Part shown: one piece after another, positions 1,411 through 6,662 of the stretch
Layout of the letters: each line of letters starts with the position of its first letter
Position numbering within the stretch: the first letter of the stretch is position 1
From: a virus
Taxonomy: Duplodnaviria; Heunggongvirae; Uroviricota; Caudoviricetes
Virus record (IMG/VR): IMGVR_UViG_3300049597_000266
Length of the DNA stretch: 6,866 bases
Strand: one strand, 5' to 3'
Notes under the pieces: model-generated
Seen by the model: the letters and a program-made list of their open reading frames with translations, nothing else
What the model was told of the DNA's origin: nothing
Database searches by the model: none
Program-made: the position numbers and the translations under genes

Positions 1411-1849
1411 ACTGCAGACGGTGGACGACTGGCTTAGTGCCTTACTGGCGAATCTGGAACCAGTCGCAAGAAGCCGCATGATGCGCCAGCTGGCGCAGGA
1501 ACTGCGCCGGACACAGCAGCAGAATATCAGGATGCAGCGCAATCCAGATGGCAGCAGTTATGAACCGCGCAAGGTCACGGCGCGCAGTAAAAAAGGCCGC
1601 ATCAAACGTCAGATGTTTGCAAAGCTGCGCACCACCAAATACCTGAAAACCGCCGCCAGCGCCGACTCTGCCAGCGTACAGTTTGAAAGTAAGGTGCAGC
1701 GCATTGCCCGCGTTCACCATTATGGCCTGCGCGATCGCGTCAGCCGCAAAGGACCGGAAGTGCGTTACGCAGAGCGTCGTTTGTTGGGTCTTAATGGTGA
1801 GTCTTACGTTCTAACTCGTGATATATTGAATAGATTCCTTCTGTCTTGA
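1403..1849 (+). CDS. S: Tail completion protein S (P2 gpS-like); last ~17 codons lie in the AT-rich island (probably a chimeric C-terminus)
   Basis: 148-aa ORF with motif LEPVARSRMMRQLAQELRRTQQQNIRMQRNPDGSSYEPRK matching my recollection of the P2 gpS N-terminal region. GTG 1403 overlaps the R stop by 8 nt. From about nt 1798 the codons become AT-rich and rare for enterobacteria (cta, ata, aga) up to the stop at 1847-1849. Confidence 0.8.
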   Translation: MAELQTVDDWLSALLANLEPVARSRMMRQLAQELRRTQQQNIRMQRNPDGSSYEPRKVTARSKKGRIKRQMFAKLRTTKYLKTAASADSASVQFESKVQRIARVHHYGLRDRVSRKGPEVRYAERRLLGLNGESYVLTRDILNRFLLS

Positions 1850-2597
1850 ATTCACCATATGCCCAATGAATTGCATTTTTTTGTTCAGTCAGAATATATT
1901 TCCTAACTTTTTTAGAATAGTGAATGGTCAGTATAAAACCCAAAGAAATCCATAATAGAATAAATATGGTTGTTGGGGCAAAGGAATAGATAAAGAATTT
2001 GTCTTTAACGAAATTCTTGACTTCTTCATCAATGTAAGTATTCCCTTCATCAGAGGTTAGTAGTTTACAAAGAATTTCTTTATGTTCTATAGTTAATGAT
2101 TTGTACTTCTCTGTACTGGCAGAGGATGACTCTTCGCAATCATCTTTTGATATTTCCCAATCAGGAGTGGTTAATATTGTAGCTGCAGTCGCCAGTTTTT
2201 TTGACATATAAAATGATTCACCGGACTTTATCCAATAAAGCAATGTGCTATTTGGTGGGGTTCTAATGGCTTGGATGAAAACTGGACCAAAAATATAAAT
2301 TGCACACAAAAAAAGAAGTGAAAAGAGAACCGTGATTGATTTTTCAGCCCATGTGATAGTAGGCAGCCTTTTTAATGATATTCGTATAAGAAAAAAATTT
2401 AATATAAACGCAGGTATTCCTGATTTTTTCAAAATTACATCATGAGATTTTCTATATTTGAATAGTGCTCTTATAACTATCGTCACCAAAGTTATAACAG
2501 CTCCAATAATGGAAATCCATGCGGCAAGTGCCGCTGCCGGGGTGTTTAAAAATTCAGCATTAAATATATTAGAACTTATTGGATTCATAACACTCAT
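1791..2597 (-). CDS. Hypothetical four-helix integral membrane protein (268 aa) encoded by the AT-rich moron; function unknown
   Basis: An 807-nt ORF uninterrupted in ~30% GC DNA, where stops are frequent by chance. ATG at 2597 (minus) is preceded by GGTGGATAA (RBS-like). Four hydrophobic segments: AAALAAWISIIGAVITLVTIVIRALF, IPAFILNFFLIRISL (weaker), ITVLFSLLFLCAIYIFGPVFIQAI and FFIYSFAPTTIFILLWISLGFILTIHY. A hydrophilic, acidic ~90-aa domain sits between helices 3 and 4. Its 3' end overlaps the S 3' end convergently by 59 nt. No homology recognised. Confidence 0.65.
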   Translation of the reverse strand: MSVMNPISSNIFNAEFLNTPAAALAAWISIIGAVITLVTIVIRALFKYRKSHDVILKKSGIPAFILNFFLIRISLKRLPTITWAEKSITVLFSLLFLCAIYIFGPVFIQAIRTPPNSTLLYWIKSGESFYMSKKLATAATILTTPDWEISKDDCEESSSASTEKYKSLTIEHKEILCKLLTSDEGNTYIDEEVKNFVKDKFFIYSFAPTTIFILLWISLGFILTIHYSKKVRKYILTEQKNAIHWAYGEFKTEGIYSIYHELERKTHH

Positions 2598-2700
2598 TTA
2601 TCCACCTATTGGTTGTTTTTTATCCTTTTATCAATTTGTACCATCGATACCACAATTTGCAAGAAGTTATAAACAAGTTTTCAGCTGTCATCATATATCT
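1795..2700. other. AT-rich island (~30% GC against ~55% in flanks) at the S-V junction; probable horizontally acquired moron
   Basis: Abrupt compositional shift visible by eye. One 60-nt sample (1861-1920) counts 17 G+C (28%). The island carries one long ORF on the minus strand and is bounded by the tail genes S (left) and V (right). No terminal inverted repeats or target-site duplications were seen. Confidence 0.7.
2637..2654 (+). promoter_or_regulatory. TGT-N12-ACA dyad, candidate Ogr/Delta-type activator site of the P2 late promoter for the V operon
   Basis: Sequence TGT ACCATCGATACC ACA at 2637-2654 (palindromic core ATCGAT), flanked by direct repeats CAATTTG (2632-2638 and 2653-2659). 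It lies about 55 nt upstream of the V ATG, in the intergenic region between the divergent moron ORF and V. P2 late promoters are known to carry TGT-N12-ACA centred near -55. The -10 and transcription start are not resolved; TATAAA at 2669-2674 and TATAT at 2694-2698 are candidates. Confidence 0.35.
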
Positions 2701-3279
2701 ATGAACGCACAACTAACCGAAATCATGCGCCTTATCACCAATCTGATCCGCATAGGTGTAGTCACCGAAGTGGACCGGGAAAACTGGCTTTGTCGGGTGA
2801 AAACGGGCGACCTTGAAACCAACTGGATCAGCTGGCTGACGCTGCGCGCGGGTAATGCCCGCACATGGTGGCGACCATCGGAAGGTGAGCAGGTGGTGCT
2901 GCTGAGTCTGGGCGGCAATCTGGAGACTGCCTTTGCGCTGCCCGCTGTCTATTCGAATCAGTTCGCACCACCGTCGACGTCGGCGGACGCCTGCGTGACA
3001 GAACATCCTGACGGTGGCTGGTTTGAATACGAACCCGCCACCGGGCGCTGGTATGTCAGGGGCATCAAATCAATGGTCATTGAGGCCGCTGATAACATCA
3101 CCATGAAAACCAGTGAGTTTGTACTGGAGGCTGACCGCACGCGCATTAACAGCGAAGTGGTGATCAATGGTGGCGTTACCCAGGGCGGCGGAGCGATGAG
3201 TTCTAACGGGATCGTGGTTGATGCGCATCAGCATACTGGCGTCCTGAAAGGCGGCGATACAACCGGAGGCCCGGTATGA
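2701..3279 (+). CDS. V: Baseplate assembly / spike protein V (P2 gpV-like)
   Basis: 192-aa ORF, MNAQLTEIMRLITNLIRIGVVTEVDRENWLCRVKTGDLETNWISWLTLRAGNARTWWRPSEGEQVVLLSLGGNLETAFALPAVYS..., matching my recollection of P2 gpV (..IRTGIIVETD..CRVQTG..WLTHRAG..RTWWAPSVGEQV..GGELDTAF.LP). Start placed at ATG 2701, the first ATG after the AT-rich intergenic region; ATG 2725 is an alternative. No clear Shine-Dalgarno. The ORF-track extension back to 2458 is rejected. Confidence 0.85.
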   Translation: MNAQLTEIMRLITNLIRIGVVTEVDRENWLCRVKTGDLETNWISWLTLRAGNARTWWRPSEGEQVVLLSLGGNLETAFALPAVYSNQFAPPSTSADACVTEHPDGGWFEYEPATGRWYVRGIKSMVIEAADNITMKTSEFVLEADRTRINSEVVINGGVTQGGGAMSSNGIVVDAHQHTGVLKGGDTTGGPV

Positions 3280-3635: not shown

Positions 3636-4530
3636 CCTTTCGCAGTTGCCTGCGCCGCAGATTGTCGATGTGCCGGACTTTGAGACGTTGCTTGCCGAAC
3701 GCAAGGCCGAATTTGTTGCGCTTCATCCGAAAGATGAGCAGGAAGCCGTGATCCGCACGCTGGAACTGGAATCTGAACCCGTCACCAAATTGCTGCAGGA
3801 GAATGCTTACCGTGAGTTGCTTCTGCGCCAGCGCATTAACGAAGCCGCGCAGGCGGTGATGGTGGCTTACGCGATGGGCGGCGATCTTGACCAGCTCGCT
3901 GCCAACTACAACGTGAAACGCCTGACGGTGACGCCTGCTGATAATGACGCTGTGCCGCCCGTTGCGGCTGTGATGGAAAGCGATGAAGCGTTACGCCTGC
4001 GTGTGCCTGCAGCCTTTGAAGGGCTTTCAGTTGCGGGGCCAACTGCAGCCTATGAATTTCATGCCCGAAGCGCCGACGGTCGGGTGGCGGATGCCAGTGC
4101 AACCAGTCCGGCACCTGCAGAGGTGGTACTGACTGTCCTTAGCCGTGAAGGCGACGGAACAGCAGAAAAAGACCTGCTGGATGTGGTGGAAAAAGCCCTG
4201 AACAGTGAGAACGTCCGCCCGGTGGCTGACCGTCTGACGGTTCGCAGCGCAGAAATCATCCCGTATCGCGTGGAAGCCACCATTTTTCTCTATCCGGGAC
4301 CGGAAGCAGAGCCGGTAATGGCAGCGGCAAAAGCCAGCCTGCAGAAGTACATCGCCAGTCAGACGCGTCTTGGTCGGGATATTCGCCGTAGCGCCATCTT
4401 TGCCGCCTTGCATGTTGAGGGTGTGCAGCGTGTGGAGCTGGCTTCTCCTCTGGCGGATGTGGTCCTGAACAAAACACAGGCGGCATCATGTACGCAGTGG
4501 AGCGTAACCAACGGAGGAACGGATGAATAG
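3622..4530 (+). CDS. J: Baseplate assembly protein J (P2 gpJ-like)
   Basis: 302-aa ORF from ATG 3622 with AGGAG at 3611-3615. Sequence MAVIDLSQLPAPQIVDVPDFETLLAERKAEFVALHPKDEQEAVIRTLELESEPVTKLLQENAYRELLLRQRINEAAQAVM...RLGRDIRRSAIFAALHVEGVQRVELASPLADVVL matches my recollection of P2 gpJ. Overlaps the W 3' end by 14 nt. The ORF-track start at 3583 is an in-frame upstream extension. Confidence 0.9.
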   Translation: MAVIDLSQLPAPQIVDVPDFETLLAERKAEFVALHPKDEQEAVIRTLELESEPVTKLLQENAYRELLLRQRINEAAQAVMVAYAMGGDLDQLAANYNVKRLTVTPADNDAVPPVAAVMESDEALRLRVPAAFEGLSVAGPTAAYEFHARSADGRVADASATSPAPAEVVLTVLSREGDGTAEKDLLDVVEKALNSENVRPVADRLTVRSAEIIPYRVEATIFLYPGPEAEPVMAAAKASLQKYIASQTRLGRDIRRSAIFAALHVEGVQRVELASPLADVVLNKTQAASCTQWSVTNGGTDE

Positions 4531-5043
4531 TCTGCTGCCACCGGGTTCAACACCACTGGAGCGCCGACTGGCGCAAACCTGCAGCGGGATTTCTGATCTG
4601 CAGGTGCCGCTTCGTGACTTGTGGAATCCGGCAACCTGTCCGGTCAGTTTCCTGCCTTATCTCGCCTGGGCGTTCTCTGTGGATCGCTGGGACGAGGACT
4701 GGACAGAAAGTGTCAAGCGCCAGGTGGTGAAGGATGCTTTTTATATTCATCAGCATAAAGGGACCACCAGTGCCGTGCGGCGGGTGGTGGAGCCGTTCGG
4801 CTTTCTGATCCGCATTATTGAGTGGTGGCAGACCGGATAAGCGATGCCAAACCATGCAGCCGTCACATGATCGGCATGTCCATCAACCTGCAGACCAGCG
4901 GCCCGCATTGGGTGGGAGCCGCCAGCTATCTTGGCGAAGAAATCACGATCTATCCGTATATCAACGAAACAATTATTTCCGGTGGCACCGCGCATGAAGG
5001 CGGGGCGGTCCATGTTATTGACACAATGAGAGTGAATCCATGA
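4523..5043 (+). pseudogene. I: Baseplate protein I (P2 gpI-like), interrupted by a frameshift near 4819-4840
   Basis: The N-terminal 105-aa ORF (4523-4840, frame 2) carries typical gpI motifs (LWNPATCPVSFLPYLAWAFSVDRWDEDW...VVEPFGFLIRIIEWW). The downstream ORF (4822-5043, frame 1) resembles the gpI C-terminus (DAKPCSRHMIGMSI...EEITIYPY). The two overlap by 19 nt, and the combined span (521 nt) is 1 nt short of a single ~173-codon gene. The ATG overlaps the J stop; the second ORF's stop overlaps the H ATG. Confidence 0.6.
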
Positions 5044-6662
5044 GCACAAAATTTTATACCCTGCTGACGGATATTGGCGCGGCGAAACTTGCCAGCGCCG
5101 CCGCGCTCGGTGTGCCTTTAAAAATTACCCATATGGCGGTCGGCGATGGCGGCGGAGTATTGCCAACGCCGGATGCAAAGCAGACTGCACTGGTGAATGA
5201 GAAACGCCGGGCTGCGCTGAATATGCTCTATATCGACCCGCAGAACAGTAGCCAGATTATTGCTGAACAGGTAATCCCTGAAAATGAGGGCGGTTGGTGG
5301 ATACGTGAAGTGGGCCTGTTTGATGAGTCCGGGGCATTGATTGCCGTGGGAAACTGCCCGGAAAGCTATAAGCCGCAACTGGCTGAAGGCAGTGGGCGTA
5401 CCCAGACCGTGCGCATGGTGCTGATTACCAGCAGCACGGACAATATCACCCTGAAAATCGACCCTGCCGTCGTGCTGGCAACCCGCAAGTATGTGGATGA
5501 CAAGGTACTGGAGCTGAAGGTGTTCGTGGATGATAAGATGGCAAAACATCTTGCCGCACCGGACCCGCATTCACAGTATGCACCCAAAGAAAGCCCGACA
5601 TTGACCGGAACACCCAAAGCGCCAACGCCAGCGGAGGGGAATAACACCACGCAGATTGCGACCACCGCGTTTGTTCAGGCGGCACTGATGGCCCTTATTA
5701 ATGGTGCGCCAGCCACACTGGATACGATGAAAGAAATTGCCGCTGCCATTAATAATGACCCGAAATTCAGTACCACCATTAACAATGCGCTGGCACTGAA
5801 AGCGCCGCTGTTAAGTCCGGCATTCACCGGAACGCCAACAGCCCCCACTGCCGCACAGTCGGTTAACAATACACAGATTGCCACCACGGCTTTTGTGAAA
5901 TCGGCAATTGCGGCAATGGTGGGGTCTGCACCTGCTGCACTGGATACACTGAACGAACTGGCTGCGGCGCTGGGGAATGACCCGAACTTTGCCACGACAA
6001 TGCTTAATGCGCTGGCAGGTAAACAACCGTTGGACAATACGCTGACTAATTTGAGTGGAAAGGATGTAGCTGGTCTTCTCGCATACCTTGGTTTGGGAGA
6101 TGCATTAATTGGTGATGAATGTAAAATTGCAGGGTTTGACAGTAGTAACGTCAATGCCCCGTATATGCGATTCGCCAGAACAAATACAGTAGTTCGTCTG
6201 GCAACAAAAGACTATGCGCAACCAAAAGACCAGACACTGACAGATTTAAGCGGTAAGGATAAGGCTGAACTAAGAACTTATCTTGATCTGAAAAGTGCGG
6301 CTCAAAGGGATGTTGGCTCAGGGGCAAATCAGATTCCGGATATGAATGACTTCACATCCAGCCTGACCAGCCCTGGCTGGCAAAAATTACCGTCAGGTCT
6401 GATTATTCAGTGGGGGGCAGCCAATCCATCATCAACTGGAGAGATCTTTATTACGTTTCCTGTCGCGTTCTCTGCATACCCGATGTATGTGGGATTTGGT
6501 CCTCAGCAGGCATCGCTTCCTAACGTAGTTCAGTCGCCAGTAATTTCAGCGCCAACGATAACTAATTTAGGATGCGGCGTCCGAAATCTGATGATTCCAA
6601 CAGCGGGCGGAGCACCAGTAGCCAGCATGAGTTCATTTTTCTGGATTGCGGTAGGGAAATAA
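5040..6662 (+). CDS. H: Tail fibre protein H (P2 gpH-like N-terminus with a divergent C-terminal receptor-binding region)
   Basis: 540-aa ORF. N-terminus MSTKFYTLLTDIGAAKLASAAALGVPLKITHMAVGDGGGVLP...GGWWIREVGLFDESGALIAVGNCPESYKPQLAEGSGRTQTVRMVLITSS matches my recollection of the conserved baseplate-attachment domain of P2 gpH. The region SPAFTGTPTAPT...NTQIATTAFV...LDTLNELAAALGNDPNFATTMLNALAGKQP also matches P2 H. The C-terminal third (from about 6030) is divergent and lower in GC. Confidence 0.9.
   Translation: MSTKFYTLLTDIGAAKLASAAALGVPLKITHMAVGDGGGVLPTPDAKQTALVNEKRRAALNMLYIDPQNSSQIIAEQVIPENEGGWWIREVGLFDESGALIAVGNCPESYKPQLAEGSGRTQTVRMVLITSSTDNITLKIDPAVVLATRKYVDDKVLELKVFVDDKMAKHLAAPDPHSQYAPKESPTLTGTPKAPTPAEGNNTTQIATTAFVQAALMALINGAPATLDTMKEIAAAINNDPKFSTTINNALALKAPLLSPAFTGTPTAPTAAQSVNNTQIATTAFVKSAIAAMVGSAPAALDTLNELAAALGNDPNFATTMLNALAGKQPLDNTLTNLSGKDVAGLLAYLGLGDALIGDECKIAGFDSSNVNAPYMRFARTNTVVRLATKDYAQPKDQTLTDLSGKDKAELRTYLDLKSAAQRDVGSGANQIPDMNDFTSSLTSPGWQKLPSGLIIQWGAANPSSTGEIFITFPVAFSAYPMYVGFGPQQASLPNVVQSPVISAPTITNLGCGVRNLMIPTAGGAPVASMSSFFWIAVGK
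5592..6029 (+). repeat. Two tandem ~72-aa (216-nt) tail-fibre repeat units within H
   Basis: Residues 185-256 (SPTLTGTPKAPTPAEGNNTTQIATTAFVQAALMALINGAPATLDTMKEIAAAINNDPKFSTTINNALALKAP) and 259-330 (SPAFTGTPTAPTAAQSVNNTQIATTAFVKSAIAAMVGSAPAALDTLNELAAALGNDPNFATTMLNALAGKQP) align over their full length with about 60% identity; nt 5592-5807 and 5814-6029. Confidence 0.8.

Follow-up and report, generated by a model that had tools for sequence, protein, structure and literature searches.

A predicted P2-type late promoter for gene V within the exchangeable S-V cassette of an E. coli B-type defective prophage

Late promoters of P2-like phages and the prophage in the window

The late promoters of phage P2 (P_P, P_O, P_V and P_F) have the sequence TGT-N12-ACA in common and depend on Ogr, a zinc-finger activator of the CX2CX22CX4C type (PMC3931495). 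P_V lies directly upstream of gene V, following a non-essential, AT-rich divergent ORF (orf30 in P2); its TGT half-site is at -65 from the V ATG, and a -10-like hexamer, CAATCT (CAnnnT), lies about 7–8 nt before an ATG that has no Shine-Dalgarno sequence (SD). All of these features recur in the locus described here, with the TGT at -64. The 186 B, P4, PSP3, phiR73 and NucC systems use activators of the same Cys4 zinc-finger family at -35-less promoters with an upstream dyad. Leaderless genes are listed from lambda, P2 and Tn1721 (PMC4633059), and that source counts a P2 mRNA among the few leaderless mRNAs of E. coli, with Christie and Calendar (1985) cited. No explicit statement that the P2 gene V mRNA is leaderless was found in the literature. 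We take the P2 transcript concerned to be that of gene V. The orf30 locus is itself a recognised hot spot of P2-like phages, together with the TO region and Z/fun (PMC3091744, PMC6823313), and, like the region studied here, it has S and V separated by a foreign, AT-rich ORF that differs in content from one P2-like phage to another.

The window, by which is meant the whole 6,866-nt stretch of IMG/VR record IMGVR_UViG_3300049597_000266 that was analysed, is 99.94% identical to the defective P2-like prophage carried by E. coli B strains, here represented by BL21. With an 85-nt deletion set aside, three mismatches are counted in 4837 nt, and the spacer at 2598–2700 is the same in the BL21 prophage, with no differences. 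The prophage is of the Elveevirus/Wadgaonvirus type and is the E. coli B defective prophage; the window covers its late region, from a truncated scaffold/endolysin junction through lysB/C, R, S and an AT-rich block to V, W, J, I and H. The coordinates of the features discussed below are collected in Table 1.

Table 1. Features of the window around the S-V block, with positions counted from the first nucleotide of the window
Feature	Position	Strand	Basis or remarks
AT-rich exchangeable S-V cassette	~1801..2700		recoded S 3' end, DUF6216 gene and its own P_V (predicted)
DUF6216 gene, 268-aa membrane protein	1791..2597	-	PF19723, E = 1.6e-11; PGAP: DUF6216 family protein
Start of the divergent minus-strand ORF	2597 (CAT 2595-2597)	-	read from sequence
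SD of the DUF6216 gene, AGGTGG (GGAGG in homologues)	2602-2607	-	conserved
Extended imperfect palindrome around the dyad	2625..2666		42 bp; 24-nt overlapping arms, 71% complementary
Weak candidate DUF6216 promoter	2633..2662	-	-35 TTGCAA (2662-2657), 16-18 nt, TACAAA/CAAATT (2640-2633); dyad in its spacer
Predicted binding site of the P_V activator (Ogr/B/Delta family), TTGT-N12-ACAA	2636..2655		sequence and comparative offset
Left half of the dyad, TGT	2637-2639		sequence
N12 of the dyad, ACCATCGATACC	2640-2651		sequence
Core of the dyad, ATCGAT	2643-2648		sequence
Right half of the dyad, ACA	2652-2654		sequence
Alternative weak candidate DUF6216 promoter	2691-2664	-	ATGACA (2691-2686)-16-TAACTT (2669-2664)
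Predicted extended -10 of P_V, TG-t-CATCAT	2686..2694	+	hexamer 2689-2694, at -12 to -7 if +1 = 2701
V start codon and predicted transcription start	2701..2703	+	position of the -10, dyad centre at -55.5, no SD
Gene V (baseplate spike; heads the V-W-J-I-H late operon)	2701..3279	+	BL21 and relatives annotate it as "baseplate assembly protein V"

In comparison to the classic examples, the window has the more regular site. The P2 V protein is ~41% identical to that of the window, and the P_V of the P2 record (L084, 1421–1440) reads TGTTGTATGGTCGTTCTACA, which gives TGT-N11-ACA or TGT-N14-ACA, whereas the window has a perfect N12 with extended symmetry. Most P2-type V loci (L148–L224) keep only the left half, TTGT(G/A)TC, at -65/-66, with a degenerate right side, and upstream of orf32 of phage 186, the homologue of V, only a TGT half-site is present at the expected place. 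Alignment with the P_V regions of P2 and 186, as suggested in an earlier note on this DNA, gives no alignable homology upstream of V, and the correspondence is one of shared architecture. We regard the predicted P_V of the window as a clean member of the class that cannot be aligned with its classic representatives. Like P2, the near-identical BL21 prophage has an Ogr-family activator gene in the same element: it keeps an ogr/Delta-like zinc-finger gene with the CX2CX22CX4C arrangement, located outside the window.

The closest described relatives are Klebsiella phage 4LV2017 and Escherichia phage 500465-1, both island-free phages of the Elveevirus/Wadgaonvirus group, and Escherichia phage Cartapus, whose V proteins are 96–99% identical to that of the window. 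In all three the dyad is at exactly -64 and a TG-extended CAACCT occupies -12 to -7, while the P_V DNA is otherwise unrelated to that of the window save at these functional positions. In 4LV2017 the S-V interval measures just 68 nt and the cassette gene is missing; Cartapus carries a different divergent ORF, of 176 aa.

The dyad upstream of V and the predicted start of its transcript

The start of the divergent ORF and the V ATG are separated by a 103-nt spacer of ~32% GC, and both the coordinates and the AT-rich composition agree with the description in the earlier note. Within the spacer the dyad TGTACCATCGATACCACA spans 2637–2654, with its first base 64 nt upstream of the V ATG and its centre, 2645.5, at 55.5 nt upstream of the A of that codon; the TGT-N12-ACA with an ATCGAT core and the distance of about 55 nt to V had likewise been read correctly. 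A single TGT-N12-ACA in 6.9 kb is by itself not above chance: one is seen in the window against 1.78 expected, and at least one occurs in 168 of 200 shuffles.

The dyad is embedded in an extended imperfect palindrome (Table 1) that is equalled or beaten in ~1% of shuffles. This palindrome is kept within the present cassette family, is missing in other cassette classes, and holds both copies of CAATTTG (2632–2638 and 2653–2659) and both copies of TACCA (2639–2643 and 2648–2652). The earlier note had singled out these repeats as symmetrically ordered elements flanking the dyad. They are indeed present, but the significance attached to them could not be upheld, since a 7-nt direct repeat within 40 nt arises in 29% of spacer shuffles; the repeats are also absent from other cassette classes and were rejected as a separate element. 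As CAATTTG differs from the self-complementary CAATTG by a single additional T, most of what looks like symmetric direct repeats is accounted for by the outer arms of the palindrome.

The position of the dyad was judged against relatives. V loci were drawn from IMG/VR (80), species-representative genomes (41) and reference phages (3), and their 115 usable upstream regions fell into 29 unrelated sequence classes, comprising the island-free one, the present cassette and many other cassettes. Of these 29 classes, 26 have a TGT-N12-ACA whose first base is 63–66 nt upstream of the V ATG; composition-matched shuffles give 0.036 such classes. The commonest offset across classes is exactly -64, as in the window. 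Judged in this way, the placement of the dyad greatly exceeds what chance would give. Alignment of the classes on the dyad gives a site consensus of TTGTgtcA..ACAA. Within the cassette family the dyad is kept and TGTCAT is invariant, with spacers of varying sequence between the elements. The loci of Erwinia piriflorinigrans (L126) and Pantoea (L134–L136) have no TGT-N12-ACA within 130 nt upstream of V, and they may have another arrangement or an activator of other specificity. The Pantoea loci carry GAGG upstream of the V ATG together with only a TGT half-site.

When the dyad itself and the coding sequence are set aside, the strongest signal in the dyad-aligned classes is at A(+53) and T(+57), counted from the dyad start, and a weaker one is seen at +29 and +52. 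The two strong positions match A2 and T6 of a -10 hexamer of the sigma-70 type, with the consensus cAnnnT at +52 to +57; the V ATG comes seven nt behind this hexamer, at +64. The window has CATCAT here, a 4/6 match to a -10 that is preceded by an extended TG; the first base of the hexamer is 43.5 nt from the dyad centre. The best -35 at a spacing of 16–17 nt is GTTATA at 2666–2671, a poor one with 3/6 matches. TGTCAT is invariant in six cassette homologues, and the hexamer reads CATCAT in five of them and CATTAT in the sixth (L101). The stretches 2670–2685 and 2695–2700 vary among these homologues, and the alternation of conserved blocks with such variable stretches is what one would expect of a promoter.

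No GGAG, GAGG or AGGA is found at -18 to -4 of V in the window, and an SD core precedes V in only one of 26 classes, in keeping with the lack of an obvious SD remarked on earlier; W, I and lysB each have an SD core. In two loci, from Scandinavium lactucae (L117) and Tatumella saanichensis (L131), the dyad is at -77, that is, 13 nt further upstream, with TATAGT at the usual +52 to +57 and a 13-nt leader that carries a GAGGA/GAAGG Shine-Dalgarno sequence. The spacing in these two loci indicates that the geometry is tied to the dyad and not to the ATG. The leadered variant of P_V lies ~80 nt upstream of V (locus position 1501).

The position of the -10, the geometry of the dyad and the lack of an SD together lead to the prediction that the V transcript starts at, or 1–2 nt before, the A of the start codon, and the V mRNA is probably leaderless in the exact sense. 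A very short leader, as the earlier note had anticipated, is what the placement of CATCAT at 2689–2694 would give, with a predicted start at ~2701. In lambda cI (transcribed from P_RM) and in the P2 late mRNA, both leaderless, the ATG is at +1 without an SD, as is predicted for V of the window, and the -10 hexamer of V ends 6–7 nt before the ATG, as in leaderless phage mRNAs. Some relatives with offsets of 65–66 differ from the leaderless examples in that their ATG would be 1–2 nt downstream of the predicted start.

Further sites of this kind were located in the related genomes. The BL21 prophage (~20 kb) has only three TGT-N12-ACA sites, all of them in the P/O region or before V. In 4LV2017, where gp38 is Ogr-like, four of the eight sites fall into three late intergenic regions that amount to ~1% of the genome: the P-O interval holds two of them, FI is preceded by one, and the fourth is at -64 from V.

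We assign 2636–2701 as a P2-type late promoter P_V, predicted to be Ogr-dependent, with a probability of roughly 0.85. The segment combines TGT-N12-ACA with a -10 that has a poor -35, it stands at the head of a late operon, and a gene for the cognate activator is present in the near-identical BL21 prophage. The identification of the dyad as the P2-type late-promoter activator site of V, proposed in the earlier note, is supported by the 26 of 29 classes, by 4LV2017 and by the late-region sites of the BL21 prophage. Counting against the assignment are the hexamer, at 4/6, the expectation of one TGT-N12-ACA per 6.9 kb by chance, and a resemblance to the experimentally studied promoters of P2 and 186 that is architectural and cannot be aligned. 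A Cys4 zinc-finger activator of the Ogr/B/Delta family would bind TTGT-N12-ACAA centred at about -55.5 and would recruit sigma-70 RNA polymerase to the extended -10 (TGtCATCAT, 2686–2694) without a usable -35; the activator could be supplied by the ogr-like gene of the prophage itself, by a superinfecting P2-like phage or by a P4-like satellite. Transcription would then begin at or within 1 nt of A2701 to give a leaderless V-W-J-I-H mRNA. That the activator binds here, where precisely the 5' end lies and that V is translated without a leader are predictions made from sequence, and no usable BL21 transcription start site data for this prophage were found in the literature. As the prophage is defective, P_V may never fire in its present host unless the activator is supplied.

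The divergent DUF6216 gene and other readings of the spacer

The divergent gene encodes a DUF6216 protein with several hydrophobic segments (Table 1). The protein gave no PADLOC match and no tblastn match in the phage collection, and comparison with P2 Orf30 (E = 0.5) revealed no detectable relation. With the cassette and its flanks (1750–2760) as query, coverage of at least 80% was obtained in 111 of 5426 complete E. coli genomes, and homologues of the protein, down to 50% identity, occupy the same position adjoining V. Of its two potential start codons, the ATG at 2597 is kept in the cassette homologues and that at 2588 is not. Since the SD and the first ATG (2597–2607) are conserved, the DUF6216 mRNA has to start within about 2612–2700, inside the footprint of P_V. 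In 103 nt the promoter of the DUF6216 gene must overlap P_V, an arrangement that is geometrically unavoidable, and on the same geometric ground mutual interference between the V and DUF6216 transcription units is predicted.

A standard sigma-70 and terminator consensus scan of 1700–2800 returned nothing in the spacer on either strand. A relaxed scan for a DUF6216 promoter yielded candidates with 7–8/12 matches at best, of which two are given in Table 1. TTGCAA and TACAAAT of the first are invariant in the cassette homologues; the -35 of the second, ATGACA, is the P_V -10 on the other strand. It is possible, if rather doubtful, that the P_V dyad also acts as an operator for the DUF6216 gene, whose sigma-70 promoter would overlap the dyad or the P_V -10. 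Just as tentative is the further suggestion that the activator or RNA polymerase at P_V would shut DUF6216 off late, the gene being expressed in the lysogen. Such a dual use is consistent with a DUF6216 mRNA start that must lie wholly inside the P_V footprint and with the construction of both candidate promoters from blocks invariant in the cassette homologues, as well as with a flanking symmetry that goes beyond TGT/ACA and is confined to this cassette family; near the dyad of other cassettes there are CAT triplets that may be starts of divergent genes. However, neither candidate reaches the threshold of the standard scan, and the conserved block includes the 5' coding part of the gene and is therefore not specific to the promoter candidates.

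Two further proposals concerning the divergent gene were rejected. Co-activation of DUF6216 from the same dyad at -55.5 would place its start at ~2590, downstream of the conserved SD and of the ATG at 2597, and the second ATG lacks such conservation. The impression that the spacer is more conserved than the gene is not upheld by one homologous locus (L103, 50% protein identity), in which the 5' part of the gene equals the spacer in conservation, the pattern being mosaic.

The start of the V transcript could also be placed further upstream, near 2680, if TATAAA at 2668–2673 served as the -10 and left a ~20-nt leader without an SD, but this we consider very unlikely. By eye, TTATAAAC (2667–2674) is the most -10-like string of the spacer. 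It is found, however, in the least conserved part of the spacer and reads TTAAAATC in one cassette homologue (L100) and ATAGCAAAAC in another (L101), and nothing comparable is present at this spacing in the other classes, which generally have cAnnnT at +52 to +57 instead. The dyad would moreover be centred at about -35 and not at the -55 given for P2 late promoters, and the true leadered variants from S. lactucae and T. saanichensis carry a real SD. A chance palindrome in AT-rich foreign DNA, with V depending entirely on transcripts that read through from the late operon upstream, would agree with the number of matches expected per window and with the failure to find a terminator-like site between S and V, which makes read-through possible, but it is effectively refuted by the shared offset in 26 of 29 classes against 0.036 expected, by the location of all three sites of the BL21 prophage in late-promoter regions and by the constant spacing, across classes, between the dyad and a -10-like element.

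The exchangeable block between S and V

The GC content of the cassette is 30–36%, against ~57% in its flanks. BLAST homology to the closest relatives, those with V 96–99% identical, ends at 1752–1800 on the left and resumes at 2699–2701 on the right, so that the entire spacer, with the dyad and the -10 included, falls within the variable cassette. The right boundary of the island had been placed between 2598 and about 2636 in the earlier note; this placement has to be abandoned, as homology to island-free relatives and to relatives with other islands breaks only at 2699–2701. On the left, the last ~16 codons of S (1776–1849, where S ends) are inside the AT-rich cassette, and the 3' ends of S and of the DUF6216 gene form a 59-nt antisense overlap at 1791–1849. 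Across cassettes the C-termini of S are homologous as protein (LLGxN...RD.L..WL) and diverged as DNA. Besides the island-free class there are 28 upstream classes, at least about eight of them among loci whose V is at least 98% identical. The block has what characterises a hot-spot cassette of P2-like phages (PMC3091744), a foreign gene of deviant GC content between S and V that differs among near-identical phages.

P_V, as predicted here, is not part of a conserved flank: each cassette variant appears to bring its own P_V with the same geometry. The homologous but diverged tail of S, together with a right edge in the highly conserved first codons of V, suggests that diverged P2-like phages have traded cassettes through recombination within S and around the V start, and that these cassettes did not arise by insertion beside a resident promoter. 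In comparison to the orf30 locus as described, the block in the window is extended by the last ~16 codons of S and by a complete predicted P_V, and it ends at the V ATG. In the orf30 literature read, no statement was found that makes the promoter and the tail of S part of the variable block. This kind of promoter is already well known, and the established picture of P2 late gene control is unchanged; the modestly new point is that the promoter, judged from comparison of the loci, would reside inside the swappable cassette and travel with it, with a boundary that falls at the predicted +1.

For annotation, the AT-rich block would be treated as a complete exchangeable module that includes the promoter, and not as an island next to a conserved promoter. 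The boundaries of this P2-like phage hot spot would coincide with a predicted start of both transcription and translation. The relatives also provide ~26 independent natural versions of one activator-dependent, predicted leaderless promoter, together with a natural leadered variant, and these versions point to the positions that matter: TTGT, ACAA, A2 and T6 of the -10, and a fixed spacing. E. coli B strains, BL21 among them, carry the locus, which makes the predictions inexpensive to test.

A more far-reaching model, which we regard as speculative and improbable, would hold that what is exchanged at the S-V hot spot is a whole module, and that the hot spot is no insertion site; the module would consist of the C-terminal tail of S, an antisense accessory gene and P_V, with its right edge at the +1 and ATG of a leaderless V mRNA and with the Ogr site doubling as an operator in the DUF6216 promoter. 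Were this model true, every accessory gene would travel with its own Ogr-responsive promoter, and the DUF6216 gene would be on in the lysogen and turned off via the same protein that turns the tail genes on.

Several other features of the prophage were recorded. At its left end (1–458) the window shows the deletion junction that typifies the defective prophage of E. coli B: a GPO scaffold gene cut short at 318 is joined to what is left of the endolysin gene, its 3' fragment, and the genes N, M, L, X and that of the holin are lost. In the BL21 prophage the genes from FI to D are absent and the A gene is truncated. At 4837/4838, in the baseplate gene I, the window lacks 85 nt that are present in BL21, Cartapus and 4LV2017, the junction being formed between CAGACCGGA and TAAGCGATG. 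The deletion shifts the reading frame and splits I into ORFs at 4523–4840 and 4822–5043. An Rfam scan of the whole window returned no RNA family. A retron with an St85-family reverse transcriptase and an effector is present in the BL21 prophage (L147, 9055–11103) and in 4LV2017 (L104, 10905–12888), in both cases between the replication genes and the portal gene, which is the place of the TO hot spot of P2. Within the tail-fibre gene H, two segments of ~205 nt (5591–5795 and 5813–6017) share ~66% identity with each other and represent an internal duplication.
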